Shown piece by piece: positions 1-55,820 of a stretch of DNA of 61,702 bases. How positions within the stretch are numbered: position 1 is the stretch's first letter; every line of letters starts with the position of its first letter. The notes under the pieces were generated by a model. The model was given only the letters and a program-made list of their open reading frames with translations. It did not search any database and was not told the DNA's origin. This DNA comes from Mesotaenium endlicherianum (lineage: Eukaryota): positions 186,001-247,702 of the forward strand of contig WELA01002856.1 of the NCBI GenBank assembly GCA_009602735.1. Direction: 5' to 3'. The translations under genes were made by a program, and so were the position numbers.

Positions 1-2637
1 ATCGAGGACTTGCTTGATACCCTGTCTGGCGCTAAGGTGTTCAGTAAGATAGATCTCAAGAGTGGTTATCATCAAATCAGAATTGCTGAGGGGGATGAAC
101 ACAAGACTGCTTTCCGCACACGTTATGGACACTATGAGTTCAACGTGATGCCATTTGGACTGACTAATGCTCCTGCTACCTTCATGGGAGCTATGAATGA
201 CATTTTCAGACCTTATTTGGATAAGTTTGTGCAAGTTTTCCTGGATGATATTTTAATTTTCTCTAAAGATGAAGCTCAGCACACTGAACACTTATAAACA
301 GTCCTAGACACTCTACGGAAAAATCACTTATATGCTAAAATGAGCAAGTGTGATTTCTTTAAGGAAAGTATTGAATTCTTAGGCCACGTTGTCAGTAAAG
401 AGGGCATCAGGGTAGATCCTAAGAAAGTCCAGACCATAAGGGACTGGCCAGTACCACAGTCGGTCTCTGAAGTTAGATCCTTCCTCGGGTTGGCTAACTA
501 CTATAGGAGATTTATTGAGAATTATTCCACAAAGGCCAGTAAACTGACTGACCTTACTAAGAAAGACATCGGGTATGTGTGGGGGGAAGAGCAGCAGGCT
601 GCCTTCCAGACCCTTAAAGATGCCCTTTGTTCTGCCCCAGTGCTAGCCGTGTATGACCCCAGCAAACCGGTGCAGGTGGTTACTGATGCCTCTGATTTTG
701 CCATGGGTGCTATTTTGTTGCAGCCTGCTGACAAAACCACAAAGGATGGTAAGGTACGGCAGGAGTGGCATCCTGTGTTGTATGAGTCTATGAAATTTAA
801 TCCAGCGGAGATTAATTACTCAGTGCATGATAAAGAGCTGCTAGCTATCATTCATGTACTCAAACAGTGGAGAGCATACTTACATGGTAAAGCTTTTAAG
901 GTGATTACAGATCATCTAGCTCTGACCCACTTTCAGAAGAAGTCCAAGCTGTCGAGGAGGGAGAACCGCTGGAGCCAGATGCTGGAGCAGTTCCAAGTCC
1001 AGATCGACTACAAACCAGGGAAGTTGAATCCTGCTGATGCACTCTCTAGAAGACCTGACTTGCAAGAAAGGAACTTTAGTCAGCATGCTGTAGATAAAGT
1101 CCTGTGTGCACTCACTTCACTAAAGGTGAAAAAGTCCTTCCTTGAACAACTTAGGAAAGCCTACCTTTCTGACCCAACATTTGAGCCCAGCCCCACTACT
1201 GGTATGTGTCGTGCTACCGCACTCGGGTATAAGCTCAAGGGAGGGGTCTGGGTGACTGAAACCACTTCAGGCAGGCTGAAGCTGGTCATTCCTAATAATT
1301 TGGAAATAAGGTCTCTCTTACTGAGTCAAGCTCATGACAGTCTCCTGGGTGGACATTTGGGGCAGGCCAAAACTGTTGGCAAACTGGCAAAACATTATCA
1401 TTGGGAGGGGTTACCCCGGGAGGTCTTGAAATATGTCAAGTCCTGTGACCAGTGTCAGAGAAATAAGTCTCGGCACACACCACCCGGAGGTCTCTTGCAA
1501 CCGCTACCCATCCCAGCGGGACGCTGGGAAACTATATCCATGGACTGGGTGGTCTCACTACCAAGAACTGCCAACGGGCATGATTCAATACTGGTAGTCG
1601 TGGATAAACTGACAAAAATGGTCATTTTTATCCCCACAACTGTCAAAGTGACTGCACTCGAAACAGCGAGACAGTTTTACAACCATGTAGTATGCCAACA
1701 TGGGCTCCCTTCTAATATCATCTCAGACAGAGACTCAAAATTCACCTCTAAGTTCTGGAGAGCTTTAATGGGGTTAATGGGAGTCAAACAGCTGCTCAGC
1801 ACAGCAAACCACCCTCAGACTGATGGGCAGACTGAAAGAACTAACCGAGTTCTGCAGGAGGTGCTGAGAGCATATATTAACCAAAAACAAGATAATTGGG
1901 ATGACCTGTTGCCTCAAATTCAGTTTGCGGTCAACAGTGCGGTGCACGCGTCAACGGGCAAAACTCCTTTTGAACTCAGCCTGGGTAGAGTCCCTAAGTC
2001 TCCTCTAGATGTGCTAGGGGAATCTTTAACTCACCCTGAAGGGATTGACAACCCGGTCTCCCTCCAGTTAACTCAGGAGTTTGCTGACACCCTGTCAGAA
2101 GTCCAACGAAACTTGCACAAGGCCCAAGAAAACCAACAAAAATACGCTAATCAACACCGTCGGGAACTGACATTTTCCAAGGGGGATTTAGTCAAACTGC
2201 ATTCTCAGCACCTGTACCTCCCTGGTGTGGTCAAGAAAAAGCTTGGCCCTGTCTGGGTCGGTCCATATTCGGTGGTCCGTCGTGTCGGTCAGAATGCTTA
2301 CAAACTGAACATGTCAGCTGACTACAAGGGTCACCCGGTCTTTAATGTCTCCTTCCTGGAACCATACATCAAAGGTGATACACTGTTCACAGGTCGGTTA
2401 CCTGTCCAACCGGGACCGGTCCCCGCTGTCCGGGACGGCGACCCTGAGGAATATGAGGTCGATGAGATTTTAGACGCTCGCTCGGTCCGTCGATCGTCTA
2501 AATATGTCATGAAGTACCTCATCCGATGGAAGGGTTACGATGCCTCTGGGGACACTTGGGAATTTAAAGATCAGCTGACCCATGCCAAAGGGGCGTTGAA
2601 ACGGTTCCACCTTCGGGCGGCTGGGGCACCTCCCTAA
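1..2637 (+). pseudogene. pol: pol (RT, RNase H, integrase, chromodomain) with one in-frame stop
   Basis: ORFs 10-297 and 340-2637 are in the same frame. TAA at 295-297 corresponds to AAG in the 55-61 kb copy. Motifs: [28 protein letters not shown] zinc finger, GPY, chromodomain [20 protein letters not shown]. Confidence 0.93.
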
Positions 2638-2640
2638 CAG

Positions 2641-2760
2641 TCGTTTCCGTTGACACGGGAAGGTGACAGGCGGTCCTGTCTCCAAATAAGTTGGAGGGAG
2701 ATGTGACAGTTAGTGACGGTTGTGACAGGCAGCCCACCTTTAAATTTAAGTTGGAGGGAG
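2641..2760 (+). repeat. Imperfect 60-bp tandem duplication, each unit ending in a PPT-like AAGTTGGAGGGA
   Basis: AAGTTGGAGGGA at 2688-2699 and 2748-2759, each preceded by GTGACAGGC; same 12-mer as the functional PPT at 4702-4713. Confidence 0.75.
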
Positions 2761-2961
2761 CGGTAGTCTCTGATCACCATATTACCCACTCAACCTGCGC
2801 TCACACTCACTTGCTCTCCAACTCAATTTTTCCTTATATTCGCTCACACCAGGTATTCCACTCTTGGAACTCTCCTGATCGCATCCCTCTTCATCAAGGG
2901 CACTCAGTAACGGCAAAATATCATGACTTCACTAACTGCATTGTGTTTATGATTGAGCAGG

Positions 2962-4629
2962 ATGACTCAAAAGTCGGAACTCAAGAGGAAGAGAAGGGCG
3001 GAAGAGGTACATGCAGAATACTTGCAGTTCCGTGGAGACATCGAATCATCTTCCATCACCGCTCGGGAATCACAACGACTTTAACAACAGCGGGAGGCAC
3101 AGAAGAAGAAGGAGGAGGAGGAACAGGCCAGACTGAGGCAGGGAGAAATGGACAGAATAGCTGCAGAGGAGGCTAAGAAAGCATAGGAGGAGAGGCAAGC
3201 TGAGGAGAAGCGGAAGCAGCAGGCTGAAGAAGAAGAACAGAGGAGAATGAGCAGCTACCGCTACACGGTGCTGGGCAAGGGCTTTGATCTACTGGAGGAG
3301 GCCTTCAAGTATGCCCAGAGAAGTCGCAGTGAGTCGCAGAAGGAAATCCTCCAGAAGGAAGGGGAGACATCAGAAAACTTTGACAAGTATGTAGAGGTCG
3401 GCACAGGGCTCCTCCTCTACCACGATTACGCTAGGATGGTAGGATATACCATCGGAGAGGCCAAGGCAATGGCCCAGGTGAACGAAGCAGGAGCTGTCTC
3501 GATTCCTGGTATCTGGGGGGCAGATAGGGTCATCAGGATGATCCCCATGGACGCGGACAGCTTCAAGGACTCAACACCCCACAACAGGTTCAAGGCCATG
3601 TACAATGAGGTGGAGAGGAGGAGCTGGGAATTCTTGGCCAGAGAAACCAGTCAGCTGGACTTTGCAGGGCACTGGTACCCTTGTACTCTCAAAAAGACAG
3701 ACGCTGCCTTCTTCCAAAAGCCCACTGATTGGCGGTGGATGACCATCAACATGAGGGACCAGCAGAATGACAGGGCGACGGATGAGGATTTCCTGACGGA
3801 CCTAAACGGGAACATAGTATTGCCCCCTCACATTGCGGCTTGGGACCCAAGATTGGATGGAGTCAGAGACTGCATGAGCCAAGAGATGCAGGGGGACAGA
3901 AGCAGGGCCCGAGAGTCATTCTCCAAAGGGAAGCACGCTTATGCCAAATGGGCAAGTAAGCAGGGGGAAAAGGACCTCTATGCGGTCCGGACTCAGCAGC
4001 CCCCACCAGCACCCAAAAGGGGAAGGTCAGTAGGATATTCTTTATCTCGGGAAGAGCTGGAGCAGCGGACAGAGGAGACCCCAGAAGTCTCAGAGGAACC
4101 CGCGGACAACGAGGAGGCGGAGTCGGAGGAAGACGAGGAGGAAGGCGAGGAGGAGGACACTAGCCCCGCCGTGATCCTGACACCTGCCACATCCCCTGTA
4201 AGGGAGAAGACGGGGTGGGCCCCGCCGCAACTCGCTCAAGAGGAGGATATCACTTGGCTGGGGACTGCCAGAGGACAGAGCCCATCTCCAGGCAAGGAGA
4301 CCCAGTCGGACAGGGCAGAGAGGAGGGCTGCTCGGGAGATAGCCAGAGGCCTGCCAGCATCTCCCTCGCAGAGAGGGCATGTACCCTTGGCTCATGTCAT
4401 GCAACATCCTTCCGAGATGCCGGTATACGTACCTGTCAGTTTGAGGACTGCCCAGGAGAAGGCTGCCTCCCTTCAGTTTCACACTGTGCAGGAGGAAACA
4501 GCCCAGTTACTACGTTCTCCGCCGGGTCCTTACACGGAACCCCCTTCTCTGACAGGCTTCAAAAGACCCCAAGACAAGAGGAGGTCTGGCTCCCCTGAGC
4601 ATAGGGCCTCAGGGATATCTCCCTCCTAA
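2962..4629 (+). pseudogene. Accessory ORF3 of the family A retrotransposon (about 555 codons, unknown function, two premature stops)
   Basis: The 460-aa ORF at 3247-4629 extends in frame to ATG 2962 across TAA 3082-3084 and TAG 3184-3186. N-terminal KRKRR plus E/Q/K/R coiled-coil-like segment, globular-looking middle, acidic and S/P-rich C-terminus. Confidence 0.8.
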
Positions 4630-4701
4630 GGGCAGCAGGCTGGGGATAAGAGGGACAGCACGCTGTTACTAGTGATAGTGTTGTCGAGGCGACAACATGA
4701 T

Positions 4702-4713
4702 AAGTTGGAGGGA
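4702..4713 (+). promoter_or_regulatory. Polypurine tract, family A
   Basis: AAGTTGGAGGGA immediately before the LTR start TGTAATG; same at 6040-6051. Confidence 0.85.
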
Positions 4714-4714
4714 T

Positions 4715-5435
4715 TGTAATGAATCAGTATACTGGTCGATATAATATTCATTTAAATAATATAGTTAAATAAGTTCAGCCTGCTGAACTCTAGTTAATAA
4801 TCAGTCTGCTGGACTTTATACTTAATATCAATTTAATGACTTGGCCGGAAGTAGCAGGCTGAGGCCACCTTAAGTCAGCTTGCTGACACATTCTTTGACA
4901 GCCAGCTGACTTCCGTACTCGGTAGCAGCGAACTGCCTCAATATGCATCTAAGTGTGGTATGCTAGATGAATGGCCACATGACATCCCTATGATGGATGG
5001 CGATTCGGGATGATGGGAGATGGCGGTGGATTTGGTTAACCGAGGTCCTACCAACGTGGTTAACTCCCGGGTAGGCGGTGCCATCGCACTGACCGTTGAA
5101 CAGTAAACTCATTCCATGTACATATGCTAGGCATTGCTCTCGAGTTCGGCATTCGGAAACGAGGCCAACTCTCTTGTACAGCTTACTGAGAGAGATCTGA
5201 ATCCAAGGCGAGAAGCCATTGATACGCACTGTCTTCTAACCTTGCTTATGTATGAGTTTACTGATTTGCATCATTGATGCTAGGTTACTCGCATTTGACT
5301 TACAAGTATTATTCACTGCTAGTGTATTGTCCTTTGCCGTTTAACCAGTTAACGGAAATTGCCATCAAGATTACTTGCTGATTTAAAGATCTTTATTAAT
5401 TGTTAATCGCTTATTTGGTAAGTCGATTCATTTCA
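4715..5435 (+). repeat. 3' LTR, family A copy 1
   Basis: TGTAATGAATC...GATTCATTTCA with terminal inverted repeat; matches 16126-16795 and 55051-55786. Confidence 0.93.
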
Positions 5436-5883
5436 ATAGCGTTGTATTTTATATTATCTAGTATAATATATATATACAGATTACAATATATAATATATTA
5501 CGGGTATATATTGTATTACCAAGAGGCACTATGACACCTACGTAAAGTCATGAGGCTCATGGCATAAGCCAAGAGTCATAACGAAACCTACCAAGGAGAG
5601 GTTTGCCTCGTTTCACATGTCACGTGAAGAGGTGGACCTTTTGGGTTGTCACGTTCAACAGGTACAAGTTGTCCTGTCACAACCCTCTAATATAGGTGTC
5701 GCAGGAGTGCCAAGCACTCAACCGGCTCGCGTTGGCAAGCATAAATACTTGCAGAGCCAATCTCAGTGCAACTCTGAGAACGCCTCTTCTCGTCATTGCA
5801 TCTTTGTCCAGGTTTTGGACAATTTCTTTCTGAAAAGCTTAGAAAAGATCTTCACAATTCTCCCGATAGTGAGAATTGTTACA
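5436..5883 (+). repeat. Probable 3' portion of an unrelated LTR (family D) into which copy A1 inserted
   Basis: Ends in TGTTACA at 5883, with a TATA-like CATAAATA near 5740 and a terminal hairpin; family-A-like internal sequence resumes directly after it. No second copy in the window. Confidence 0.45.
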
Positions 5884-6590
5884 TCTACTTCACCAGAGGA
5901 TAGAGCGCAAGGAACATAGGTTGCATGCGCGGGTCAGTGGGTTAGACTTTGCATGCTTTGTTCAGATGGCTGTATGTGTTGCTTTGATGTACATTGTATT
6001 AGGATGAGTGTTTAAGTGTTGTTGAGACAACAACAAGTTAAGTTGGAGGGATTGTAATGAATCAGTATTATTGATAGTGTAATATACACATAAATACAAT
6101 AGTTATTTAAGTTCAGTCTGCTGAACTTTAGGTAACATTAAGTCTGCTGGACTTTAGGTGATAATCATTATAATGACTCAGTCGAGGGCAGCAGGCTGAA
6201 GTCTACTATTTGTCTGCTTGCTGACACATTCTTAGACAGTCAGTTGATTGCCGCACTCGGTATCAGTGAACTGCCTAGTAATGCATCTAAGTGTGATATG
6301 CTAGATGAGTGGCCAGATGACACCCTTGAGGTGGATGGCGATTCGGGATGATGGGAGATGGCTGTGGATTTGGTTAGCCGAGGTCCAATCGACGTGGTTA
6401 ACTCCCGGGTAGGTGATGCCATCGCACTTGCCGTTGAACATTAAACTCATTCCATGTACATAGGTTAGGTCATACTCTCAAGTTCGGCATTTAGAAACAA
6501 GGCCAACTATATTGTAGCGCTTACTGAGAGAGATCTAAATCTGAGGCGAGAAGCCATTGATACGCACTGTCTTCTAACCTTGCTTATATA
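5884..6590 (+). mobile_element. 3' remnant of a diverged family A element (A2): ORF3 C-terminus, PPT, first part of 3' LTR (6053-6590)
   Basis: PPT at 6040-6051 followed by TGTAATGAATC at 6053; clearly alignable to the family A LTR but more diverged; interrupted at 6590. Confidence 0.85.
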
Positions 6591-7309
6591 TGAAAGGGAG
6601 AAGGGTGCGGGGAGTGCGCCCATGCACACTCACGCACCCTCACCCGCGAGTGGAAGCATGCACGAGGACCTTTTCTTGTTGCATGCACAAGGTGGAGTGG
6701 CCTGGTGGTATGCCACCCTTGCAAGAGTTAGAGGGCTACATGAGAGAGAGGAGTTGAAAAGAACTCACTTTATTAAGAAAAGTCGTGTACAAGCTACGAA
6801 GGTTAGACTAGAATAGAATAAGCCCCCTCTACTTCCTTGTGCTTCCCATTTATCCTTTTACTCTAAGTGTCCTCTCTAGCAAAGTACCTCCAGAACCTTC
6901 TCCTATGGCTCCTTCCATGTAGGTGACCTTGCCTAGTTGGACAAGCTAGCACACTCACACGCACACAATCACACTCTAGAATATTCTACTACACAAACCA
7001 CTAACTCCTCACGGAGTTTCTAGAAATTCCACGATCACTTTGGCACTCTACGTAATTGTACGTACTTTCTGGAACCCTCACGTTTCAATGTCCTACTTTC
7101 TGGACTCCAACCGAAATTTTCGTCACTGGACCTGTCCTTGTCACGAAATAAAATCTGTGACATTTAAAACTCACTAAAAACTTCCAAAATTTATAACTAT
7201 CTCAATACTTGTCCAAATGACGTGAAATAAAGGCCAAAGTTCTTCTAAAATCACACTCTATGCACATAAAATACTAAAAAGAAACAAACTACACTTTCAT
7301 AACCTTACA
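6591..7309 (-). repeat. 3' LTR of element C
   Basis: Highly similar direct repeat of 17398-18117; TG..CA termini; adjacent minus-strand PPT GAGGAGGGGGATGA. Confidence 0.93.
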
Positions 7310-8943: not shown

Positions 8944-9687
8944 TGTAAGGTCATAGGTTTATAAAGTGCATTATTGAGTTTCATAAAATTATGTTTTGAT
9001 TGTACATTCATGTAGAGTGCATTTTTGTGGTCATTTTGATATAAAGTTCATCGAATTTGGTCAAGTATTGAGAGAGTTATGGATTTCCGAAGTTTAATTA
9101 GTTTTGAGGTCGGTTGACGACTGTCCTTAATTCGCGGTGAGCGCGACCGTCGGATTGACCGACAGCGTCGAGCGATCTGGCCCGTTAGAATGAACTCGAA
9201 CCTTCACGTAAGTTCGGCTGACGCGGAGTGCCGACTAGGTCGATTTACCTAGAAGTTTCGGTTTAGCCTAGCGCGTCTAAGATAGAATATTCTAGTAATG
9301 TCGATGCATGTATGTGGACGTCAATTCGGCCCGACACGTCAGATTAGACTGATCTGGCTTACTCACGAATATTCTGGAAGGGACGATTTGACGAACACTT
9401 AGGAAAATCCGTAGCTTCCTCCTAGGGGGGAGCACTTAGGCAGAAAATTATAAATAGGCATAACTTCTTTGTTTCTTATCAGTTTTCACTTCTGTAAATT
9501 TCTACGGGTTTGTAATGACAAGGCCTTTCATCCTACATCATTTGTGAGCAGTTTCTTGCTACTCAAAATGTTGAGTAATTTTCCTAAGCTTTGTTAGTGA
9601 TATGCCGCTGCACTCTCTAGTATGATGGCAACTAGTTCCTTTCCTCGTGAGTCACTACGCTTCCACTAGGGCACTTTGCCCCTTTCA
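8944..9687 (+). repeat. 5' LTR of element B
   Basis: TGTAAGG...CCTTTCA; direct repeat of 14357-15100; TATAAATA near 9448. Confidence 0.95.
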
Positions 9688-9689
9688 TC

Positions 9690-9702
9690 TGGTATCGGAG
9701 CA
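9690..9702 (+). promoter_or_regulatory. Primer binding site (tRNA-iMet type), element B
   Basis: TGGTATCGGAGCA 2 nt after the 5' LTR. Confidence 0.9.
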
Positions 9703-9724
9703 GGGCTAGTTTGCATATTATATT

Positions 9725-10756
9725 ATGGAGTCGCAGCCGGCAGCTGGAGGAGGCGAACATGTCGAGCATGTTGAGCGCGCGGGGCAGCAGGCAGCACCAA
9801 CAATGACCAGAGAGCAACAAGAGATGCAGGCGATGCTAAGACAAATGGCAAATGCAATTGGAGGAGAAGTCTACACCCAGTTTCAACAAAATATGCGCGC
9901 GGAGGTGGAGAGAATGGTGCGAGTTGTTATGGGGAACGCCGCTTCGACGAGTTCGGCACCTGCACCTGTTGTACCACCGATTCATGTTAACCCAGTGGTG
10001 CAACCAGTTATTCCACCCGCATCAGGAGTGCGTGCGCCTAAGCCTGAAGTTTATACTGGAGAGCGTGGATCGCCGCCTGTTCATCAATGGATTTTTGGAG
10101 TGAAGAAGTTTATGGAGTATTCTGCGCTCACGCCCGACAGGCAAGTCGCCTTTGTCATAACTTTGCTGCAGAAGAGTGCTGGAGCTTGGTATGAACGAGA
10201 AGAGCAGCTGTCTGGAGTTCCTGCTACTGTTGATCAGCTATTTGAAGGCTTGAAGAGGCAATTTCAACCTATTGCACCCGAGGCTACCGCTCGAGATCTA
10301 TTGGTGCGCCTTCGTCAGCGAGGAAGCGTTCAGGAGTATGTATCGCGCTTCAACGAGCTGGTGCTTCAATGTCCATCCATGCACGAGTCGGAGATGATGG
10401 ACAAGTTCAAGAGGGGACTCAAGCCAACTGTGGCCAAGGAAGTGGCGCTCAAGGACCCTACCAGTCTTGGAGAAATGATGGCATTGGCAACAAGGGTCGA
10501 CGCTGTGGAGTATAGTCAGAGGCAGTGGGGCAGCCACAACTTTGGAGGATATCGACACTTTGGATCTCAAGCGCCAAGCACGAGTGTTCAAGGTCCAGTA
10601 CCCATGGAGTTGGGACTTGTGCAGTACCAGCGCAGGCAGCAGAATTTCAAGCCGAGAGGACCGTGCTATAGTTGCGGCAAGCTTGGACATCTGGCTCGAG
10701 ACTGTCATGTGAAGGCGAAGCAACCTCAACAGCAGGAAAAAGGAGGACGCCAGTAA
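9725..10756 (+). CDS. gag: Gag, element B
   Basis: 343 aa; capsid/MHR-like [22 protein letters not shown], zinc knuckle [14 protein letters not shown]. Confidence 0.93.
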
Positions 10757-10781
10757 GTCGTTCTGGGGTGTCTACTGGCGT
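10735..10781 (+). promoter_or_regulatory. Putative -1 ribosomal frameshift signal, element B
   Basis: G_GAA_AAA (10735-10741) in gag phase, 5-nt spacer, perfect 9-bp stem 10747-10755/10773-10781; pol is in the -1 frame. Confidence 0.65.
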
Positions 10782-13700
10782 GAAGACGAGAACTCACAAG
10801 GAGGTTATCCCCAGGAGCCTGCCGAGAAGCAAAGGACGAGACGTTGACAAGCCTATCATCGTGGAAGGAGTGGTCGACGGCAACAATGCGAAGTGTATGG
10901 TCGACAGTGGCGCAAGTGCAAACTTTGTGCACAAGAAGCTGGTGAAAGAGTGGCGAGTCCCTGTGCAGAAGCATTATGAGCCTAAGGAGGCAATTTTGGC
11001 AAATGGGCAGAGACTCAAGTGTGGTGCACCTACGGAAGCTATTCACGTGGAAGTAGCGGGGCACCGGAGTAAGGAAGTTATGGAGCAGGCAGAGTTGGGT
11101 CACCATGAGGTGATATTGGGCCGACCATGGCTAAGGAAAGCCAACCCTCAAGTGCACTGGAGCACAGGACAAGTGAAAGTCCAAGGGCGTGATGGTCGAA
11201 TGGAGACAGCGAAACAGGTGGAGGTAGATACGACCACAAGTAACTGTCTTCTGTCGAGCCTGCAAGTTAAGAAGCTATGCAGGGCGAATCAGGTGAAGGA
11301 GATGTACCTTGTTTCGGTGGCCCTGGCCAGGTCATCAGATGGAGCAAGCGTGAATCCTAACAGCCTGGGCGAATGTACATCGCCGGAGGAGCAAGTAGTG
11401 GTGTCTGATCCCCTTGCTCAGAAGGAGCAGAGCCCAACTGCTCAAGAGAAGAAGCCTGCTGAGATGCCTGCCCAAATTAAGGCGCTGTTGGAGGAGTTCA
11501 AGTGCGTATTTCCTGAGGAACTACCTGCAGGATTACCTCCACAGAGAGCTATGGAGCACAAGATTGAGTTGGAACCAGGGAGCAAGCCACCAGTGAGACC
11601 CGCCTATCGACAATCGTTTGCGGAGTTGGATGAGTTGAAGAAGCAGCTGACAGAGTTGTTGGAGAAGGGATTCATCCGACCCAGCGAGTCTCCATTTGCA
11701 GCGCCAGTCTTATTTGTGAAGAAGAAGGATGGGACTATGAGGATGTGTGTCGACTACCGGGCACTCAACAAGGTCACCATCAAGAACAGGTACCCACTTC
11801 CACGAGTGGACGAGTTGATTGACAGGCTTGTCGGGGCGAAGTATTTCTCGAAGATCGATTTGAGGAGTGGCTATCACCAGGTACGGATTGCGGAAGGAGA
11901 CGTTCAGAAGACTGCTTTCAGAACTCGCTATGGTTTCTTCGAGTTCACAGTCATGCCTTTTGGATTGACTAATGCACCTGCTACATTCATGGGACTCATG
12001 AATAATATCTTCAGACCCTACTTGGACCAGTTTGTAGTTGTATTTTTGGACGACATCCTGATCTATTCGAAGACCTTGGAGGAGCATGTGGAGCATCTGA
12101 GAAAGGTGTTGGAGGTCTTGAGAGATCAGAAGCTGTATGGGAAGATGAGCAAGTGCGACTTCTGTCTCAATGAAGTTGAGTTTCTTGAACACATAGTGGG
12201 AGCTGAAGGAGTCAAGGTGGAGCAGAAGAAGGTGCAAGCAGTCAGAGATTGGCCGGTACCTGCTGATATTCATCAACTCAGGAGTTTCCTTGGCATGGCG
12301 AATTATTATCGACGTTTCATTGAAGGATTTGCCAAGGTGTGTGCACCGCTCACGGACATGTTGAAGAAGCAGGAGAAGTGGCTATGGGGTGACAAGGAGC
12401 AGCAAGCCTTCGAGAAGATTAAAGAGCTGTTAACACAGGCACCTGTGTTGGCAATTGCCAGTCCAGAGCTTCCTTTCACCANGGAGCTTCCTTTCACCAT
12501 CATCACGGACGCATCAAATTTCGCAGTGGGGGCTATTCTTCTCTAGGACCAGGGCAAAGGATTGCAGCCTGTGGCATATGAGAGCAGAAAGTTGAGTCCT
12601 GCGGAGCAGAACTATGCAGCACACGAGCGAGAGATGTTGGCTATTATCCAGGCTTTGAGGATTTGGCGATGTTATGTGGACGGCCGGAAGGTGTTTATTA
12701 AGACCGACCACAAGAGCTTGGAGAAATTTATGACGCAACCAACGTTGACACCAAGACAGGCAAGGTGGATGGAGTTTCTGCAACAGTTCGACCACAAGAT
12801 TGAGTACTTACCTGGGAAGATCAACCCTGCAGACGCTTTATCCAGGAGGTGTGACCTTGCAGCTGTCTCAGTCATCAAGGAGAATATGGACTTCAAGGAG
12901 AAGCTTCAAAGAGGTTATGAGGAGGACCCACAGTTTGCTGATGGTGGAGCAGCGGAGTTCAACGCGAGTATGCAGAAGAAGGACGGCATATGGTATTATG
13001 GTGATTCCAAGAGAGTGGTGGTACCTGACATCAAGGAGCTACGAGACTTACTACTTGCGGAGCATCATGACTGCTTATATGCTGGACACTTTGGAAGCGA
13101 GAAGACGGCAAGCGTGCTGAAGCGGGAATACTACTGGAGAAATATGGACAAGGACATCGAGGAGTGGATCAGGAGTTGCGATGCGTGCCAGAGAAACAAG
13201 ACACCAAATCAAAAGAAGGGAGGTACATTGCGACCCCTGCCTATTCCAGAGTATCCTTGGGAGCAGATTGCTATGGACTTCATCACATCGTTACCAGTCA
13301 GTGGTCAAGGGCACGATGCAGTATGGGTTGTGTCTGACAGACTCAGCAAGATGGCTCACTTCATTCCCATGAAGGAGACTTCTACGGCAGCAGATGTGGC
13401 ACGGCTATTCTTTGATCATATTTTTAGGCTACATGGGTTGCCGAAGGTGATTGTTTCAGATCGACATCCAAGGTTTACTGGCAACTTTTGGCGGTCATTG
13501 TTTACTTTGATGGGGACCAAGCTGAGTATGAGCACTTCCTATCACCCTCAGACAGACGGGCAGAGTGAGAGGCTCAACAGAACTCTGCAAGAGGTGCTCA
13601 GGAGTTTCACTATGGAGGACCCTTCAGAGTGAGACAAGAAGCTACCAGGGTTGGAGTTTGGCTACAACAACAGCATGCAGGGATCGACCAAGCAGTCACC

Positions 13701-14369
13701 ATTCGCTATGATTTATGGGAGAGAAGTATATCATTCAGGGAACATCTTGTTGGAGAAGGCGAAGGAGACTCAGGTTCCTACTACACAAGCGTTTATGGAG
13801 CAGATGGCCAACACGTGGGATACGGCGAAGACGTGTATTCGGAAGGCACAACAAGAGCAGGTCAAGCATGCTAACAAGCACAGGAGGGAAGTGACATTCC
13901 AAGTGGGCGACAAAGTACTCTTGTAGAGAACCTACCTTTCACGAGCAAGAGGAAACTGCGGGCACGGTTTACAAGTCCCTTTGAAGGGCTCAAGCAGGTG
14001 AATCCAGTGACCTACAAGTTGGAACTTCCTCCAGGATGGTGTATCCATGATGTGTTCCATGTCAGTTGTCTACGGCCATACGTTGACCCGAATGAAGGAC
14101 ATCCAGGACGACTACCTACACCGCCACCACCGGTCGAGATCGATGATGTATTGGAGTATGAAGTGGAGGCGATTGTCGGCGATCGACGAGTCAAGCGAGG
14201 TCAACGAGTTGTCCAAGAGTATCTGGTCAAGTGGAAAGGCTACCATGCGGACGACAACACTTGGGAGCCAGAGGCCAACTTGACTCATTGTAAGAGTAAG
14301 TTGAGACGTTATCTGCAGAATGCGTCGAGGACGTCGCATCTTGAGGAGGGGGATGATGTAAGGTCATAG
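10735..14369 (+). pseudogene. pol: pol of element B (protease, RT, RNase H, integrase, chromodomain)
   Basis: VDSGAS, FLDD, TDAS, HHCC, chromodomain EYEVEAIV..YLVKWKGY..NTWEP; in-frame stops at 12544, 13630 and 13924, and a frame change near 13930-13995; the frame runs through the PPT into the LTR. Confidence 0.93.
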
Positions 14370-15100
14370 GTTTATAAAGTGCATTTTTGAGTTTCATAAA
14401 AGTATGTTTTGATTGTATAGTAGTGTAGAGTGCATTTTTGTGGTCATTTTGATATAAAGTTCATCGAATTTGGTCAAGTATTGAGAGAGTTATGGATTTC
14501 CGAAGTTTAATTAGTTTTGAGGTCGGTTGACGACTGTCCTTAATTCGCGGTGAGCGCGACCGTCGGATTGACCGACAGCGTCGAGCGATCTGGCCCGTTA
14601 GAATGAACTCGAACCTTCACGTAAGTTCGGCTGACGCGGAGTGCTGACTAGGTCGATTTACCTAGAAGTTTCGGTTTAGCCTAGCACGTCTAAGATAGAA
14701 TATTCTAGTAATATCGATGCATGTATGTGGACGCCAATTCGGCCCGACACGTCAGATTAGACTGATCTGGCTATTTCACGAATATTCTGGAAGGGACGAT
14801 TTGACGAACACTTAGGAAAATCCGTAGCTTCCTCCTAGGGAGGAGCACTTAGGCAGAAAATTATAAATAGGCATAACTTCTTTGTTTCTTATCAGTTTTC
14901 ACTTCTGTAAATTTCTACGGGTTTGTAACGACAAGGCCTTTCATCCTACATCATTTGTGAGCACTTTCTTGCCACTCAAAATGTCAAGTAATTTTCCTAC
15001 GCTTTCTTAGCAATATGCCGCTGCACTCTTGAGTATGATTGCAACTAGCTTTGTTCCTCGTGAGTCACTACGCTTCCACTAGGGCACTCTGCCCCTTTCA
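14357..15100 (+). repeat. 3' LTR of element B
   Basis: Preceded by PPT GAGGAGGGGGATGA (14343-14356); direct repeat of 8944-9687. Confidence 0.95.
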
Positions 15101-16125: not shown

Positions 16126-16795
16126 TGTAATGAATCAGTATATTGGTTGACATAATATTCATTTAAATAATATAGTTAAATAAGTTCAGCCTGCTGAACT
16201 CTAGTTAACGATCAGTCTGCTGGACTTCATATTTCATATCAGTTTAATGACTCAGGCCGGAAGTAGCAGGCTGAGGTCACCTTAAGTCAGCTTGCTGACA
16301 CATTCTTTGACAGCCAGCTGACTTCCGTACTCGGTAGCAGCGAACTGCCTCGATATGCATCTAAGTGTGGTATGCTAGGTGAATGGCCAGATGACATCCC
16401 TATGATGGATGGCGATTCGGGATGATGGGAGATGGCGGTGCCATCGCACTGGCCGTTGAACAGTAAACTCATTCCATGTACATATGCTAGGCATTGCTCT
16501 CGAGTTTGGCATTCGGAAACGAGGCCAACTCTCTTGTACAGCTTACTGAGAGAGATCTGAATCCAAGGCGAGAAGCCATTGATACGCACTGTCTTCTAAC
16601 CTTGCTTATGTATGAGTTTACTGATTTGCATTATTGATGCTAGTTTACTCGCATTTGACTGACGAGTATTATTCACTGCTAGTGTGTTGTCCTTTGCCGT
16701 TAAACCGGTTAACGGGAAATACCATAGAGATTACTTGCTGATATAAAGATCTTTATCAATTGTTAATCGCTTATTTGGTAAGTCGATTCATTTCA
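16126..16795 (+). repeat. Solo LTR of family A inserted in element C
   Basis: TGTAATG..TTTCA flanked by perfect TSD CACCC (16121-16125 / 16796-16800); about 52-bp internal deletion. Confidence 0.95.
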
Positions 16796-17382: not shown

Positions 17383-17395
17383 TGCTCCGATACCA
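17383..17395 (-). promoter_or_regulatory. Primer binding site (tRNA-iMet type), element C
   Basis: TGCTCCGATACCA on + is TGGTATCGGAGCA on -, 2 nt from the LTR end. Confidence 0.88.
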
Positions 17396-17397
17396 TG

Positions 17398-18117
17398 TGA
17401 AAGGGGGAAGGGTGCGGGGAGTGCGCCCATGCACACTCACGCACCCTCACCCGCGAGTGGAAGCGTGCACGAGGACCTTTCCTAGTTGCATACACAAGGT
17501 GGAGTGGCCTGGTGGTATGCCTCCCTTGCAAGAGTTGGAGGGCTACATGAGAGAGAGGAGTTGAAAAGAACTCACTTTATTAAGAAAAGTCGTGTACAAG
17601 ATACGAAGGTTAGACTAGAATAGAATAAGCCCCCTCTACTTCCTTGTGCTTCCCATTTATCCTTTTACTCTAAGTGTCCTCTCTAGCAAAGTACCTCCAG
17701 AACCTTCTCCTATGGCTCCTTCCATGTAGGTGACCTTGCCTAGTTGGACAAGCTAGCACACTCACACGCACACAATCACACTCTAGAATATTCTACTACA
17801 CAAACCACTAACTCCTCACGGAATTTCTAGAAATTCCACGATCACTTTGGCACTCTACGTAATTGTACGTACTTTCTGGAACCCTCATGTTTCAATGTCC
17901 TACTTTCTGGACTCCAACCGAAATTTTCGTCACTGGACCTATCCTTGTCACCAAATAGAATCTGTGACATTTAAAACTAACTAAAAAACTTCCAAAATTC
18001 ATAACTATCTCAATACTTGTCCAAATGACGTGAAATGAAGGCCAAAGTTCTTCTAGAATCACACTCTATGCACATAAAATACTAGAGAGAAACAAACTAC
18101 ACATTCATAACCTTACA
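17398..18117 (-). repeat. 5' LTR of element C
   Basis: Direct repeat of 6591-7309; followed on the minus strand by PBS TGGTATCGGAGCA. Confidence 0.93.
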
Positions 18118-18303
18118 ATATTTGAGTTTACTGATTGCATGATTAATGCTCGTTTATTTGCATTTGACGCGCGAGTATTGTAATACTAGTTGTGGAGTCT
18201 TTTGCTGTTTATTAAGTACCCAGAAAGTACCACAAAGAGAACTTGTTGATGTAAAGATCTTTTATTGATTGTTAATCGCTTAACAGTAGGTTAATTCATT
18301 TTA
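18118..18303 (+). repeat. Remainder of the A2 3' LTR, split by element C
   Basis: Continues the family A LTR (..TGAGTTTACTGATT..TGTTAATCGC..TTCATTTTA) exactly where 6590 stops. Confidence 0.85.
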
Positions 18304-24826: not shown

Positions 24827-27800
24827 ATGGTTGAAGGCATGACTGGAACAGAGACTCCAAAAAGCTCGAAGAGAAAGAGGAAGAGAGATGAAGATGAGGG
24901 AAACGCTGATGATATAATTGGCAGAGGTGCTTTAGGGGGGTGCTCGACGCGGGTGATAGTGTCATCTGCGAAAGTATATCAAATCGGAGGAGAGAGACTG
25001 GAGCCTTTAGCCATCGCAAAGCTTGTGAATTCTCCAGCCGGGCCCCTAGAGAAGTACGAAGTCAGGATATGGCTGCAGAAACCTTCAGCATGCATGTTCC
25101 GCGCAGCAACTACTTCAAATCTATCTTACGACCAAGCCTGATGCTGGCAAGGGCGTTCTAGCAGCAAAGGCACGGCGTAGCCACTGATTTTTCCAGCGCC
25201 GGTGGGGTGGGGCTGGGCCAGAAAATTGGAGGCTGCCCTACAGCTCGCCAAGTGGCATGCGCAGCAGTGTGCTATGGGATACGGGGTGGCCCAGCAAGAT
25301 CCGCTGAGAGGTGTGCTTTCAGCTCTGCGCATAGTCGCTGACTGGGCGCAGTCTTCGTTACTAAAGTCGTCGGCGTCTTCTCAAGCTGCTGCTGCTTCTG
25401 CTCAAACCGTCAATGGAGCAACAAGAGCACACCTGGATGCTCGCTACTGGGCCGTCCTGAGCTGGACTGCTAGCTCCGTTGGCAGCGAGAGCCTTGTGCC
25501 TCTGTCCCCCACTCTCCTGCAGCCCATCACTGCAGCGCTTGTGCACCACTCTCACAAGCATGACACTTGCCAGACCCCGAATTCCTCACAAAGAGAAGAT
25601 AACGGAACAGCTGGCAAGGAAGCAGGGGGCGAGAGGAGCGTTGCCATTGCCCTGGGGCCGGCAGTGGTGATTGTGATGAGGCTCGTGACGCGCGGAGGGC
25701 AGCAGCAGCAACAGCAGCAGCAGCAGCGGAAGAGGGCGGGGCTGGAGCACTGGGTGGCGTTCGTGCATGCGGCTCTTGTCAGCCCCTATGCCCGCACCTT
25801 CAAGGGGGGGGGTGGCGATGACGTGGCGTGGAACGTGCTGGTGCTGCTGGCTCTGGAAGGCTTTGCAGACGTCATTGCCGGCCATCCTAATCAGAAGAAG
25901 GTGTTTGCAGCCGTGGCTGCACGCCTGCTGGTGCCTCTGCTGCGTGTGGTGCACTGTGTGTCAGCAGCAGCAGCAGCAGAGCAACACAGGTGGCACGCCA
26001 GGATGCTGGCAGCCGGGCAGCGCATTATGGCCGTGGGCCTGTTCCACCCCACGCATCTGCCCGGCTTCGCGGCCGCCCAAGGGGAAGGCGTGGCATTGAT
26101 GAGCTATCACAAGGTGCTGTTTGAGCACGTGGGCGCCGCCCTCAGGGCAGGCGACGGGGGTGCGGCAGCAGACGTGGCGCCCTCTCTGGGCTGCCTGCTC
26201 ACGGCGCTGTCCCGCCAACTGCAGCAGCAGCAGCAGCAGCAGCAGCAGGCTGTGGCAATGGATGAGGAGAGGCGGGCAGCTGTGCTGGGGCTGTTTGGAG
26301 AGCTGTTGCAGCTCCTGCTGGACGCTCACGCGCACGCTCTTGTGCTGCTGCAGGGCGCGCAAGGCCTGCTGGCGGGTGTGCAAGAGGCGCGCGCGCACGT
26401 GGCTGCGGAGCACCACAACAGCGCCCACGCCAAAGGCCGCCACATGCCCATGCTCACCCGCCTGTGCGCGGCCGCCCTCGACGGAGCCAGAGTTACCCTC
26501 CTCCTTCGCAAGGAGGGAGAGGGAGAGGGAGAGGGGCAGGCGGTGGCGAGGAGCGCCGTGGGGGTGGTGCGGCAGCTGGTGGGGATGGAGCATCGCGCAG
26601 TGGCGCCGCACATGGACGCCCTCTGCCCCTGGCTGCTGCTGCTGCTCTCCTCCTCCTCCTCTGCCCCCCTGGCGGATGAGTGCGTCGCGCTGGCTTGCCA
26701 GCTGGTGGACGTCCACGCAGACCTGCGCCAGGTGAGAGGGGTGCTCCTCCAGCCTCAGCCCAAGCCTCGACCTCAGAGAGGGCTCTTGAGAAGGCCATGC
26801 ATGGTATAGACTGCAGCGCCCCCGGCTTTCACACACTCACAGCAGCTGCTGCTGCTGCTCACACATGTCATATGTGCGCACGTGCTGGGTGGAGGATGCA
26901 GCTTGACAGGTGGGTGCCGCTGCTGCTGCAAGCGGTGAGGCAGCACGCAGCAGCTGCAGGAGGAGGAGGAGGAGCGTGGGCCTCGGCAGCACGCCTGGTG
27001 ACGGCACCCGCCTTCACCGCCGCGCTTGCTCGCGCCCTGCACTCCATGCCGCACGGCCAGGTGGCGCCGCTCGTGCGCAGCCTGGCTTTCGATATGGAAG
27101 AGTCTGCCTCTGTTGTGGAAGGAGCAGGAGGCACAGCAGCAGCAGCGGGGGCGGCGCTGGTGCTGGCGCGCGTGTACGGTACGATAGTGGACAGCCTGCC
27201 CGTGCTGCCCGCCACGGCCGCCCCGCTGGCCGCCGCGCTGCTGCACCTCCTGACCCACGCCGTGGCGCCCTTCTTGGCGCCCCATCTCGACCGCTGGGAG
27301 CGCGCAGGCGCACGCCTGCAGCGCACCTGCACCCCTGGCAAGAAGCATGAGGGGGAGGGGGGCGGGGTTGGGGGCGTGATGGTGCTGGCGGTGTACCTGG
27401 CGGCCGCGGCTGCGCTCGCGCACTGCTCCATGCTCGCGCCTCTCCAGCTAGCAGCTGAGGAGAGCAGCAGCAGCAGGGGACGCGGGCTGTTTGTGCGCGT
27501 GGGGAGGGGCCGCGCACGGCTCAGCGACATCGTCGCCGGCGGAGCCGCTGCTGCTACTTCCCGCGTGGCCGGCAGCGGCGGTGCAGCAGCAGCAGCAGCA
27601 GAGGAGCTTCATTACCGCCTGCAGTGTGCAGCCGTACACGGCCTCACCCTCATGGCTGCTGCTGATGGTGACCACGATGATGCACCCGCGCTAGCGGGCA
27701 AGTTGCTCACGCTGGCTCGCCCTCCGCAGGCCGCAGGTGGAGGTGGACATGGAGGGGGAGGGGACCGTTCGTGGGAGCTATTGTGTGCCACGTGTCACAT

Positions 27801-27996
27801 CTGGGCCCCTTGGGCAGCACCTGCACACACGCTGGCATTCGTGCGCACTCTGCTCAGGAGTGCCGTGGCCAGCAGCAGCAGCAGCAGCAGCATCAGGGGA
27901 GAGACATCGGCGCCGGCATGTTGGCCGGCGCTGCTGCAGGACGCCCACCTGTACGAGCAGCAGGTATGTCGCCCGTGTGCCATCAGGCTCTTGTGT

Positions 27997-28034
<38 letters not shown>

Positions 28035-31000
28035 GGCCTTTGCCAGTGGGTGACGGGGGAGGGGAGGGGAGAGGCATGGCAGGAAGTGCGCGCGCTGCTT
28101 GGTGACGCGCTCCTCTCGGAGCTGCGCTCTGCCCTCCCTCCTGCCTTTGCTGCCGCACCCAGCGAGCAGGAGCAGGAGCAGGAGCAGGAGCAGCACGACG
28201 TGACGACGGGAATGGGGGCAGTGCATGGGCTGCTGAGGCTGCTTCTGTGGCTGCCCCAGGGCTACCTCAGCGCTGCGCACGCCCAGCGCTGCACCCTCAC
28301 CCTGTCGCTCCTTGAAAAGTGCGTAAGCTCCACCGTTGCCTACCCCCCCCCTCGCTCTCTTGCTCTCGCATTGCGTACTGTCGGCTGAGGAAGGAAGGGA
28401 GAGAGGGATTGCAGGTACCTGGTAGAGCTGCTGGAGGTCAAGAGGAGAAATGAGGCGGCAGCAGCAGCAGTGATAAGCACGCTGGGGGCAGCCAGAGCTG
28501 CCCTGGCGTGGCTGGCGCCGGCCTGCCGCCCCCCTGCGCGCAGCCTGCCCCTCATTGCCCAAGGGGCCTCCTCCTCCTCCGCGGCAGTAGTGGCAGGGGC
28601 ACTGGAGTGGCTGCTGCACTCCTCGCTGCAGGCGGCCGCGAGAAGGGCCGCTCTCCTGTGTGGGGAGGACGTCGCGCTGCTGCCGCTGACTCTGATGGGC
28701 GACACGCGCAGCCTGCTGTGGAGCTGCTGCCACGCTTACCACATGCGCTCCGCCACCCGCCTCCTCCTCCAGCCGCAGCAGCAAGTGGCTCCTCCAAACT
28801 CTGAGGAGGAGGAGGAGGAGGAGGCCACAGTGTGGGCAATGGTAGCGGATGCCAGCACGCGCATGGCAGCTGTCGTAGGCGCTGCAGCAGTGGATGCACC
28901 TGGGTCCCGAGTAATAGCAGCAAGGGCGGGGGCGGTGCCGTTTGTGCCGCGCACCGTGGCTTTGGCCTTGGCACTGCACCACCACCAGCCTCCTCCTCCT
29001 CCTGCTCCTGCCGTGCCTCATGTTGCAACAGCGGCAGCAGCAGCAGCAGCAGCCGCAGAGACGGCGGCCATCTTGTCTTCAATGTGTCGAGCTCTAGTAG
29101 CTGTTGACCGGCAGTGCTATGCTGACAAGGCCAAGGAGGCCAAGTGGGACGCAGTGTTGCCGGAAGCGTGGCGCCGCCACCTGGAGCAGCTGGCTCCGCA
29201 GGTGGTGGCAACGCTCAGCTCCATGCTCCTCCTCTCCGTGCCGCCTCCTCCGGGGCCGGGGCCACACGTCACCAACAACAACAATAACAAGGCAGCGATG
29301 GCGACGGCAGCTGCTGCTGCTGCTCTTGCCACGTGCGCCGCACCCCACAAAGATGGCAAAGACACGGATGATTTTCTGCCTACCACTGAATTGGGAGGGA
29401 GCGTGGAGCCCCAGGAAGGTGGGGGCGAGGGCCAGGGGGTGTCGGCATCATGGGGGGATCCGGGTGCGGGCGTGGAGCAGCATCTGCTGGAGGCCGGCCT
29501 GGAGGGCCGCCTTGGCAGGGCGGCCATCGGGCACCTGCTGGCGGGCATGGCTGCCGTGACCACCATAGCGAGCGTGCGCGCCTCCTCGCCCTCGGCGTCG
29601 CCTCGCCTGCCTTTCTTGCTGGCGCCCTCGGGGGCCTTCGTGGCTCTGCTGGGCTCGCTCCTGGCGGCTGTGCACCGCCTGCTGCTGCTGCTCCTGAGGG
29701 GGGGACGAAAGGGAGCAGCAGAAGCGGCAGCGGCTCCCCCTCTTTTGGAGCCTGCGCTAGAGTTGCAGTTCTACCTGGGGCAGCTGGAGTTTGTGCAGGC
29801 GACGGCTTCATGCCTGGGAGGGATGAGAGCGCCCCCCCCCGTGTACCGCCGGATGCTCTCGCTGCACCTCACCCTGCTGGCCGCCTTTGGAAGCACCAGC
29901 AGGGGGGAGGACGTGCTGAGAGGTGCAGTGTGCGGCGGCGTGCGGGCTCTGGCCCGAGGGGCGTCCAAGGAGGGCCTGGCCTGCCTCCTGGCGGACCTGC
30001 TGCACTCCTGCGCCTCCCCCTCCTCCTCCAGCAGCATGCGGGGGGCAGCTGTGGTGGCGCTAGAGCTCGTGTACAACGCCGTCTCCGGTGCGCCCGCCGC
30101 CTGCCCCCCCTGCCCTGCCCTGCCCTGCCCTGCCCTGCCCTGCGAGTGCGTCCGAGAGGTTAGGGAGAGAGAGTGAGGGAAGGAGAAAGATCAAGCTGCT
30201 TACCCTGTCCAACTCCCAGACTGACTGACAATGGGACTGTTGCTGGGGGGAGGGGGGAGGCGGGGGCAGGGGCGGAGAAGCTGCGGGTGGTGGCGGGCCA
30301 CACGCCGGCGGTGCTGGCTGCGCTCGCCCGCTTCCTCCTCCCCTCTTCTTCTTTTGCTGCAAAAGAAGTGGAATTGGGGGTGGAAATGGGGGTGGGCGTG
30401 GGGCTTATGGGGCTAATAGCGGCACGCGCGGCCATCTTCCCCATGCATGCGCCCCATGTGGCTCTCGCCTTGCACCTGCCAGCGCTACTGCTGCTCAAGG
30501 ACGGGGAGGGCGGGGGAGTGGCGGAGGCGTGCTGCAAGCTGCTGTGTGCGTCCATGCGCCATCGCCCCAGGTGTGCTCTGCGTGTCTGCCCGCCTGCCTG
30601 CCCAGCCCGCGCTGTCCACATGGACGCCGCAGGGCGTGGCTGATGCATGATGCCGAGGTGCCCGGGGGGGGGGGGGGGGGGGGNGGGGGGGGGGCAGAGA
30701 GGCACGGCGCTGTGGGGCCCTTATTGGGGACTCTCTGCGAGCTCTCCTGCGCCGCCTGGTCCTTTGGCACTTGCCGCCCCTCCTCCGCGAGGGGGAGTAT
30801 GCGAGCTCTCTGAAGGCTCTCACGCACAGCGCCTCCTGCCTCAGCCGTGTGTACGAAGAGGTGACCTGCACACACCCCCACGTCTATGTATCCCCCCTCC
30901 CCTCGCATGTCGTCCTGACTCATCTGGCCTCTGGCGACTCAGACGCAGCTCGTGTGCCTACCTTGCATGGCCAGGTGGCGGAGCACAAGACCACACTGGG

Positions 31001-31469
31001 GAAGTACTGTGTGTACTATCTGTCCGACTATGTGTCAGCGCTGGCGGCATCAGGGGGACCAGGCCCTTGCCTCCACAAGTGCGTGCTCCCCCTCCCTCTC
31101 TCTGCTGTGCTGCCGTCCAGCTTTGAGTGGCAGACTCTGTTGAGTGATAGACCTGCGGGGAATCGGTGGGGAAGCAGAGTCGCTGAGGTGGCGCTGAGGA
31201 AGGGCGCGCATGCCATGCTGGACGCGTGCTCGCCATTTGATCTCCAGCACCTCCATGCAGCTCTCGGAGGTTGGCTCCTCTCGTGCCCTCCTCTCCTCTC
31301 CTTTGCTTTGTGCCCTGCATGCAGCAAGGTGGTAGTGCCTTGAGGGCCTGCAGCCGTGTGACAGTGCAGCACTGTCCCTTGTGCCTCTGCAGGTGGTCTA
31401 CGGAGGGGCGCTCTTGCACAGCTTAAGCAAAATTATGAGCGCCACTACAAATACAGTGGCAAGATATGA
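24827..31469 (+). CDS. URB2: URB2/Npa2-like nucleolar ribosome biogenesis protein, multi-exon
   Basis: Long helical Leu/Ala-rich exons. C-terminal Urb2-type domain ..CLSRVYEEVAEHK..KYCVYYLSDYV..LRKGAHAMLDACSPFDLQHLHAALG..LKQNYERHYKYSGKI*; N-terminal KRKRKR. Start and some internal junctions uncertain. Confidence 0.82.
27997..28033 (+). repeat. (CAG/GCA)n microsatellite in a URB2 intron; further CAG/GCA runs in exons encode polyQ, polyA and polyS
   Basis: About 12 units visible; similar runs near 25700, 26220, 27870 and 29035. Confidence 0.9.
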
Positions 31470-36843: not shown

Positions 36844-45599
<8,756 letters not shown>

Positions 45600-55050: not shown

Positions 55051-55786
55051 TGTAATGAATCAGTGTATTAGTAGATATAATATTTATTTAAAGATAATAG
55101 TTAATTAAGTTCAGCCTGCTCAACTTTAGTTAATAGTCAATCTGCTGGACTTCACATAATTATCAATTTAATGACTTAGCCGGAAGCAGCAGGCTGAAGT
55201 CCATATAAGTCAGCTTGCTGACCCATTCTTTGACAGCCAGCTGACTTCCGTACACGGTAGCAGCGAANCGGTAGCAGCAAANAACTGCCTTGACATACAC
55301 CTAAGTACGATATGCTAGATGAATGGCCAGATGACATCCCTATGATAGATGGCTATTCGGGATGATGGGAGATGGCGGTGGATTTGGTTAACCGAGAACC
55401 TACCAACGTGGTTAACTCCCGGGTAGGCGGTGCCATCGCACTGACCGTTGAACAGTAAACTCATTCCATGTACATACGCTAGGCATTGCTCTCGAGTTCG
55501 GCATTCGGAAACGAGGCCAACTCTTTTGTACAGCTTACTGAGAGAGCTCTGAATCCAAGGCGAGAAGCCATTGATACGCACTGTCTTCTAACCTTGCTTA
55601 TGTATGAGTTTACTGATTTGCATCATTGATGCTAGTTTACTCGCATTTGACTTACGAGTATTATTCCCTGCTAGTGTATTGTCCTTTGCCGTTTAACTAG
55701 TTAACGAAAATACCATAAAGATTACTTGCTGATATAAAGATCTTTATTAATTGTTAATCGCCTATTTGGTAAGTCGATTCATTTCA
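55051..55786 (+). repeat. 5' LTR of family A copy 3
   Basis: TGTAATGAATC..GATTCATTTCA followed by PBS. Confidence 0.94.
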
Positions 55787-55787
55787 G

Positions 55788-55800: not shown

Positions 55801-55820
55801 GTTATCACAGTCTTCTTTGT

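Follow-up and report, generated by a model that had tools for sequence, protein, structure and literature searches.

The locus described here raises the question why a retrotransposon of the alga Mesotaenium endlicherianum carries a long additional reading frame between pol and its 3' LTR, and what the encoded protein might do. The window, i.e. the whole stretch of 61,702 nt that was analysed (GenBank assembly GCA_009602735.1, contig WELA01002856.1, positions 186,001 to 247,702 of the forward strand), represents a nested retroelement cluster. At its left end lies the 3' part of the element in question (family A copy 1). According to Pfam the pol part (1-2637, plus strand like all features of copy 1 and copy 2 given below) comprises the end of RT, RNase H, integrase, an SH3 domain and a chromodomain. 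The element ends with a polypurine tract (PPT, 4702-4714) adjoining a 3' LTR of 721 bp with TG..CA ends (4715-5435), both identified from the sequence. An older relative (5436-6593, 18108-18301), with an own PPT at 6040 and an LTR of 84% identity, accommodates copy 1 in its 3' region. An 11.5-kb element with repeats at 6588-7309 and 17395-18117 in turn interrupts the LTR of this relative; inside this element lie a second chromovirus (8944-15100) and a solo LTR.

By the Pfam domains of copies 1 and 2, family A is a chromodomain Ty3/gypsy element with the order gag-PR-RT-RH-INT and a C-terminal chromodomain. Further hallmarks are present, namely TG..CA LTRs, a PBS, a PPT and a 5-bp target-site duplication, the latter (CACCC) derived from a family A solo LTR (16126-16795, plus strand). 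The PBS is presumably of the tRNA-Met type. The chromodomain of copy 1 (~2452-2610) matches PDB chromodomains (E 7e-9) and keeps all three aromatic-cage positions (Y/W/Y) when aligned to the CDYL chromodomain. The closest integrase relatives show at most 54% identity. In an integrase tree built by the quick method from 52 sequences (the two elements of the window and 50 of 120 matches, picked by coverage and rank, no REXdb references) family A is located on a long branch and is unplaced among the chromovirus clades. It resembles Tcn1 by the aromatic cage and the overlapping gag/pol, but differs by its tRNA-Met PBS, which the survey gives for 5% of Tcn1 (PMC6317226).

The additional frame, ORF3, spans 2962-4629 on the plus strand. 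It starts 324 nt 3' of the pol stop (2637), ends 85 nt 5' of the 3' LTR (4715) and consists of 555 codons plus TAA; the conceptual translation begins MTQKSELKRKRRAEEV. A preceding sequence-only reading had described a 460-aa ORF as the tail of a frame of about 555 codons starting at ATG 2962, and translation confirms this: the stop-free tail has 480 codons (3187-4629), or 460 aa when counted from the Met at 3247. In copy 1 the frame is interrupted at codon 41 (3082-3084) and codon 75 (3184-3186). From base composition ~22.6 stops are expected over ORF3, and an ORF of at least 480 codons did not appear in any frame in 1000 first-order Markov simulations (maximum 332), which excludes a chance origin of the open frame. 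The region is strongly purine-skewed. Antisense coding was rejected, as the longest minus-strand ORF has 138 aa. With at least 250 codons running in sense and placed between pol and the 3' LTR, ORF3 has the properties by which eORF-3'F or aORF-3S genes are defined. Pol domains, PPT, LTR and hydropathy likewise agree with the proposal that a Ty3/gypsy element with chromodomain carries an extra, non-env ORF at this position.

The spacer between pol and ORF3 contains two imperfect tandem units of ~40 nt each (2663-2760), each closing with the PPT-like AAGTTGGAGGG (2688, 2748). They sit where the ancestral chromovirus PPT would be and could represent extra plus-strand primers or scars of cassette capture. 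ORF3 and pol share an observed/expected ratio of CpG of 0.45, compared to 0.98 for a host exon, suggesting that ORF3 shared the methylated history of the element. This depletion is consistent with a long stay in a methylated element, so that a silencing pressure likely exists.

In public DNA runs ORF3 is not restricted to copy 1. Of the 24 runs in the run index, 20 contain the stretch completely or in part. The index uses four coded organism labels, of which B, C and D may not be separate host species; as the labels possibly denote one species, we do not claim conservation of ORF3 across species. Run X1 yields 3624 contigs over 2950-4100 (855 at ≥99% identity, 1135 at 95-99%, 1145 at 90-95% and 489 below 90%), which cover 30/30 bins. 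The same 30 bins are covered by each of the runs X7 (27 contigs) and X16 (53 contigs). Run X9 was set aside with one contig and 5/30 bins despite 0.45 of words in the index, which a filter may explain. Contigs of X5 and X6 span the whole ORF3 with no gaps in the listed pieces, and one contig bridges spacer and ORF3 (2657-3563). Both stop positions show a sense codon in >99.8% of the X1 depth and in all of the X7 and X16 depth. Hence both stops are private to copy 1. The idea that each stop is one C>T change away from a sense codon stands in so far as the other copies carry a sense codon at both sites; at the second site, however, the change is no C-to-T transition. The few indels listed within ORF3 are one in-frame deletion of 3 nt at 3226, one compensating pair and two frameshifting indels, the latter in single low-depth contigs (X9, X16).

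A second copy of family A is found at 55051-61176 (Pfam, sequence). It exhibits a 5' LTR (55051-55786), a PBS of the tRNA-Met type, gag, and a pol that lies in the -1 frame, and is 96.6% identical to copy 1 over pol. Where gag and pol overlap, a slippery heptamer T TTA AAA (57273-57281) is positioned in the gag register just before the gag stop and likely serves as a -1 ribosomal frameshift site. Copy 2 parts from copy 1 15-20 nt past the first PPT-like motif, and no ORF3 is present in the remaining 526 nt of the window. Some members of the family may thus lack ORF3. The summed contig depth points in the same direction, reaching 9-26 (X5) and 15-33 (X6) over ORF3 vs 32-55 (X5) and 71-145 (X6) over pol, i.e. 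about one third, whereby a summed depth is no copy number. Part of family A may hence be without ORF3 and the gene may be dispensable. Following pol of copy 2, ~60 nt (61177-61243) weakly resemble the 3' UTR of copy 1 (4645-4699; p ~0.02, one of 11 tests); neither a PPT nor an LTR follows before the window ends. A contig of run X5 carries the same junction. Copy 2 may represent an ORF3-deleted subfamily or a truncated copy. ORF3 is accordingly a multicopy extra gene of family A that occurs in many of its copies, probably not in all.

Selection on ORF3 was evaluated using the 40 best-supported of 249 variant rows, ranked by support and not by codon position. The null model consisted of 20,000 randomisations in which reference and variant base were kept and CpG context was ignored; sites were treated as independent although they are not, and adjacent changes were classed singly. 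Among these 40 best of 249 rows, 23 variants affect the third codon position vs 13.2 expected (p ~0.001), and synonymous variants number 19 vs 10.0 expected (p ~0.001). Of the sites segregating among copies, 15/28 are synonymous vs 6.9 expected (p 0.0006, rough omega 0.28; same 40 of 249). Sites private to copy 1, stops included, show 4/12 synonymous changes vs 3.1 expected (p 0.38, same set), near the neutral expectation as it should be after the death of this copy. None of the 40 best rows creates a stop in the ORF3 frame, while each of the other five frames receives 1-3. One antisense frame also reaches 18/40 synonymous variants, owing to third positions in common with the ORF3 frame, yet it is not open. 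As a control, pol of copy 1 and copy 2 was compared, with 44/73 differences at position 3 and 37/73 synonymous. The private stops together with a synonymous excess resembling that of pol indicate that ORF3 is a selected gene of the family which is dead in copy 1. Our data thus support purifying selection on ORF3, with copies varying mostly at silent sites. Contigs below 90% identity are included in the segregating set, so that selection acted while ORF3 resided in the element. The possibility that the ORF might evolve neutrally in other copies, which the sequence-only reading had left room for, is not what the synonymous excess shows; the second copy lacks ORF3 as far as the window extends.

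The predicted protein can be divided into five parts. A basic, NLS-like patch KRKRR (aa 8-12; 2983-2997) at the N-terminus may mediate nuclear import. It is followed by an E/R/K-rich predicted helix (~aa 41-95; 3082-3246) that varies in length between copies. This segment had been described as coiled-coil-like. A helix is indeed predicted, but with 55% E/R/K and only 21% hydrophobic residues (aa 41-96) its composition would be no less compatible with a charged single alpha-helix. The core of ~250 aa (3250-3996) is rich in aromatic residues (12% F/W/Y) and contains only 2 Cys. A second NLS-like patch, PKRGR (aa 351-355; 4012-4026), has a putative function in import as well. The C-terminal part (4042-4626) consists of an acidic tract (aa 361-400, 55% D/E) and an S/P-rich tail (25% S+P, 9 S/T-P sites) that is likely disordered. 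Basic patches, acidic tract and SP-rich tail are therefore all present, as the initial inspection had stated. Its statement that signal peptide and transmembrane segment are missing also holds by hydropathy: no hydrophobic segment was detected, the best Kyte-Doolittle mean over 19 residues being 0.88. An N-glycosylation sequon does not occur across the protein.

The aromatic core had not been recognised by eye, and no search found a homolog either. Pfam returned 0 families for ORF3 at E up to 10; PF04195, PF10536 and PF03078, known from the aORFs of Retand (TRP28), Ogre (plant mobile domain) and Athila (ORF-1), are absent. The best hits in PHROGs (E 0.15, on the charged helix) and PDB (E 0.69) do not indicate homology. 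A search of the core against 5.8 billion words (protein lengths 253-805 only) was blank, and phmmer against 1.84 billion representatives, the ESM Atlas and metagenome and viral contigs gave no homolog. ORF3 matches no annotated host (Mesen1) or other protein, no gag and no env, thus neither the env/gag match nor the captured host gene considered beforehand was found. Moreover it shows no similarity to gag or pol of the elements within the window. Gag features are missing, with no Pfam gag match, no CCHC motif and no resemblance to the gags of relatives. Single-sequence AlphaFold2, proposed earlier as a check of the core, resulted twice in a pLDDT of 36 and no usable fold. The protein is a true orphan and hence may hold a new fold. 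With neither homolog nor fold, nothing ties the core to binding of DNA, RNA or chromatin.

How ORF3 might be expressed was deduced from the region before its ATG, which contains a branch-like CTAAC, a GCAG acceptor at 2960 and a weak donor at 2853. The sequence predicts either a 108-nt intron (2853-2960) or a 3' splice acceptor directly 5' of the ATG. The candidate intron would remove two upstream ATGs (2923, 2949). For comparison we used the neighbouring host gene, a plant ABCC2-like transporter with 19 exons (37262-45596), one exon of which (42640-43700) is 100% identical to eukprot jgi/Mesen1/919/ME000117S00078. In this gene model 18/18 introns end in GCAG and measure 108-469 nt. The donor at 2853 lacks the +5 G seen in 16/18 host donors (read by eye). 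A consensus donor is located at the end of the 5' LTR of copy 2 (55769). The env of Drosophila gypsy is produced by a splice at the gag ATG. An equivalent splice to the acceptor at 2960 was rejected, because the donor that directly follows the gag ATG (55824) would join out of frame (by eye). A further host gene at 25181-31343 is GC-rich (68%) with long exons and poly-Q/A runs and gave no confident Pfam match in the two frames scanned; by eye it may resemble the ribosome-biogenesis factor URB2.

Two polyA RNA runs, read to 6% and 12%, provided 213 and 269 reads on 2000-5500 with uncalibrated library strand. Most of these reads map to the LTR. Over the end of pol and the spacer there is signal from one strand, fading at ~3050-3170. 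Within ORF3 there is one patch (3287-3520, 5-8x) in run X24 only, and the depth over 3521-3988 is zero in both runs, so the RNA-seq check suggested earlier meets almost no reads in the core. Splice joints around ORF3 are not listed in the two runs, which hold very few ORF3 reads, and the run index contains no RNA run with the ORF3 stretch. In these two runs (6% and 12% of reads) ORF3 of family A looks essentially silent. The LTR reads (4715-5435) switch strand at ~5115-5160, and a large number continue into two foreign flanks. This pattern suggests that a solo LTR located elsewhere is transcribed and has a promoter or polyA site near 5115-5160.

Accessory ORFs of plant LTR retrotransposons, sense and antisense, have been reviewed by Vicient and Casacuberta 2020 (PMC7264820). 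In invertebrates, chromodomain elements that carry env are noted (PMC13524379). Extra 3' sense ORFs are reported for 74% of SIRE, 26% of TatII, 22% of Retand and 18% of Tekay elements (PMC6317226, PMC7264820). The assumption that such ORFs are typical of other lineages than chromoviruses was correct for the known carriers SIRE and Tat but overstated, since REXdb gives eORF-3'F for 18% of 782 Tekay elements (Neumann 2019, PMC6317226); they are thus not foreign to chromoviruses. The same table has no eORF-3'F entry for Reina, Galadriel, CRM, Chlamyvir, Tcn1 and unclassified chromoviruses, whereby single elements may be exceptions. ORF3 resembles aORF-3S / eORF-3'F genes in position, orientation, a length of >250 codons, maintenance in many copies and absence of a conserved domain. 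It differs by its zygnematophyte algal host, by the lack of a Pfam match and, from env-like members, by the lack of a transmembrane segment. Maize Grande gene23 and Retand TRP28 aORFs are, in the accounts consulted, antisense, belong to Tat elements and mostly contain a TRP28 domain (PMC7264820, PMC11963269), in contrast to ORF3, which is sense, lies in a chromovirus and has no TRP28 domain. The Grande protein is described as nuclear and expressed from an own promoter (PMC7264820). Predicted NLSs and disorder are given for Tekay and Athila aORF proteins (PMC11728184). Also comparable are the 5' aORFs of Tekay chromoviruses in sunflower and grasses, which encode accessory proteins of ~400 aa, conserved in one subgroup only, for which an NLS, helices and long disordered stretches are predicted; yet these ORFs precede gag on its 5' side, and their elements are from seed plants and have group II chromodomains (PMC11728184). 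General database searches revealed no similarity to ORF3. VANC anti-silencing factors are accessory proteins of VANDAL/MuDR DNA transposons (PMC13547354). ORF3 is like VANC by analogy, as a lineage-specific TE protein with a helical, in VANC oligomerising, segment; the likeness is not one of sequence or fold, as VANC has a MAIN-derived fold and belongs to DNA transposons of eudicots (PMC13547354).

Relatives of the integrase were found at 79 metagenomic loci (35-45% identity), 40 of which extend at least 1 kb downstream of pol. An ORF of at least 250 codons follows pol in 14/40 (12 sense, 2 antisense). These were rejected as further cases: 10/12 sense ORFs have a gag match in Pfam (one below the cut-off), that of L022 is gag-like by BLASTP, and the two antisense ORFs belong to other retroelements. 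The downstream ORF of L051 (5210-6265, 352 codons, sense, 1.1 kb past pol) has no Pfam match and is weakly like the gag-like ORF of L022. None of the downstream ORFs resembles ORF3 (best E 0.83). In the literature accessible to us, with most subscription papers outside its scope, we found no published description of this element, be it under Zygnematophyceae chromoviruses or Mesotaenium Gypsy retrotransposons.

Tentatively, and with somewhat less than even confidence, we propose that ORF3 encodes a soluble nuclear accessory protein that would promote transcription of the element or shield it from silencing. A nuclear regulator would fit the pair of NLS-like patches, the acidic tract, the disordered tail and the absence of a transmembrane segment, although many unrelated proteins also have K/R patches and acidic tracts; the basis of the nuclear location and of the anti-silencing or chromatin role is NLS-like motifs and analogy only. 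The same selection and NLS evidence would agree with a selected nuclear accessory that acts, like Rev or Vpr, on trafficking or integration and not on silencing. It might export RNA, import the pre-integration complex or, together with the chromodomain integrase, choose target sites. Such a role has been proposed for aORFs (PMC7264820), and the aORF-bearing Tekay group is reported to differ in insertion pattern (PMC11728184). No direct counter-evidence emerged, but related chromoviruses, as far as the REXdb table and the metagenomic relatives go, manage without such an ORF, so it is unneeded for the basic cycle. We rate this role as rather unlikely. That the open and biased frame has a cause other than a protein, e.g. 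a purine-rich RNA structure, mutational context or a bias in the variants displayed, appears very unlikely. The selection is seen in 40 best of 249 rows, a clear ORF3 transcript is missing and the region is strongly purine-skewed; against this, 0/1000 simulations reach the length of ORF3, no listed variant stops its frame compared to 1-3 in each of the other five, and the rows were ranked irrespective of codon position.

The cassette might also be a captured host or viral gene or a mobile-element remnant between duplicated PPT and LTR. It would then be a passenger, with a constraint that was inherited or that benefits the host. PPT-like motifs on both sides (2688, 2748, 4702), as template switching would leave, and the presence of ORF3 in seemingly only part of the family are in line with capture. 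Nevertheless ORF3 matches neither Mesen1 nor other proteins, neither gag/pol of its own family nor gags of relatives, the synonymous excess is seen among segregating element copies including contigs below 90% identity, and its CpG depletion equals that of pol; we regard a passenger as improbable. Hardly credible is an env-like or cell-exit protein. Position and sense orientation correspond to env-like aORF-3S genes (PMC7264820), a candidate splice acceptor precedes the ATG, and RKRR at aa 9-12 resembles a furin site. Yet without signal peptide, transmembrane segment (maximum KD19 0.88) and N-glycosylation sequon, and with 2 Cys in the core, the sequence already largely refutes this reading.

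If ORF3 is a nuclear regulator as preferred here, it would be translated from a shorter spliced RNA with the acceptor at 2960, the donor being either the one at 2853 or one where the 5' LTR ends. The product would be imported via KRKRR/PKRGR, its core might bind nucleic acid or a chromatin protein, and the acidic and S/P-rich tail might recruit host machinery. It would act in trans, which would allow copies without ORF3 to spread. A more specific version, a decidedly long shot, is that ORF3 has a new fold and is a sequence-specific anti-silencing factor which recognises the GTGACAG/PPT-like repeats of the family, in trans also on ORF3-less copies. If true, ORF3 would be the retrotransposon counterpart of VANC, in an element that an aromatic-cage chromodomain would steer to heterochromatin.

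Extra ORFs are common in plant LTR retrotransposons. ORF3 brings direct evidence of purifying selection on one of them. Zygnematophyceae are the algal sister lineage of land plants. ORF3 extends the aORF class to a chromovirus of this group, whereas the tables of the reference survey list none for algal and non-seed clades. As numerous natural copies, apparently with and without ORF3, occur in this unicellular algal host, silencing and spread of the two kinds of copies may be compared.
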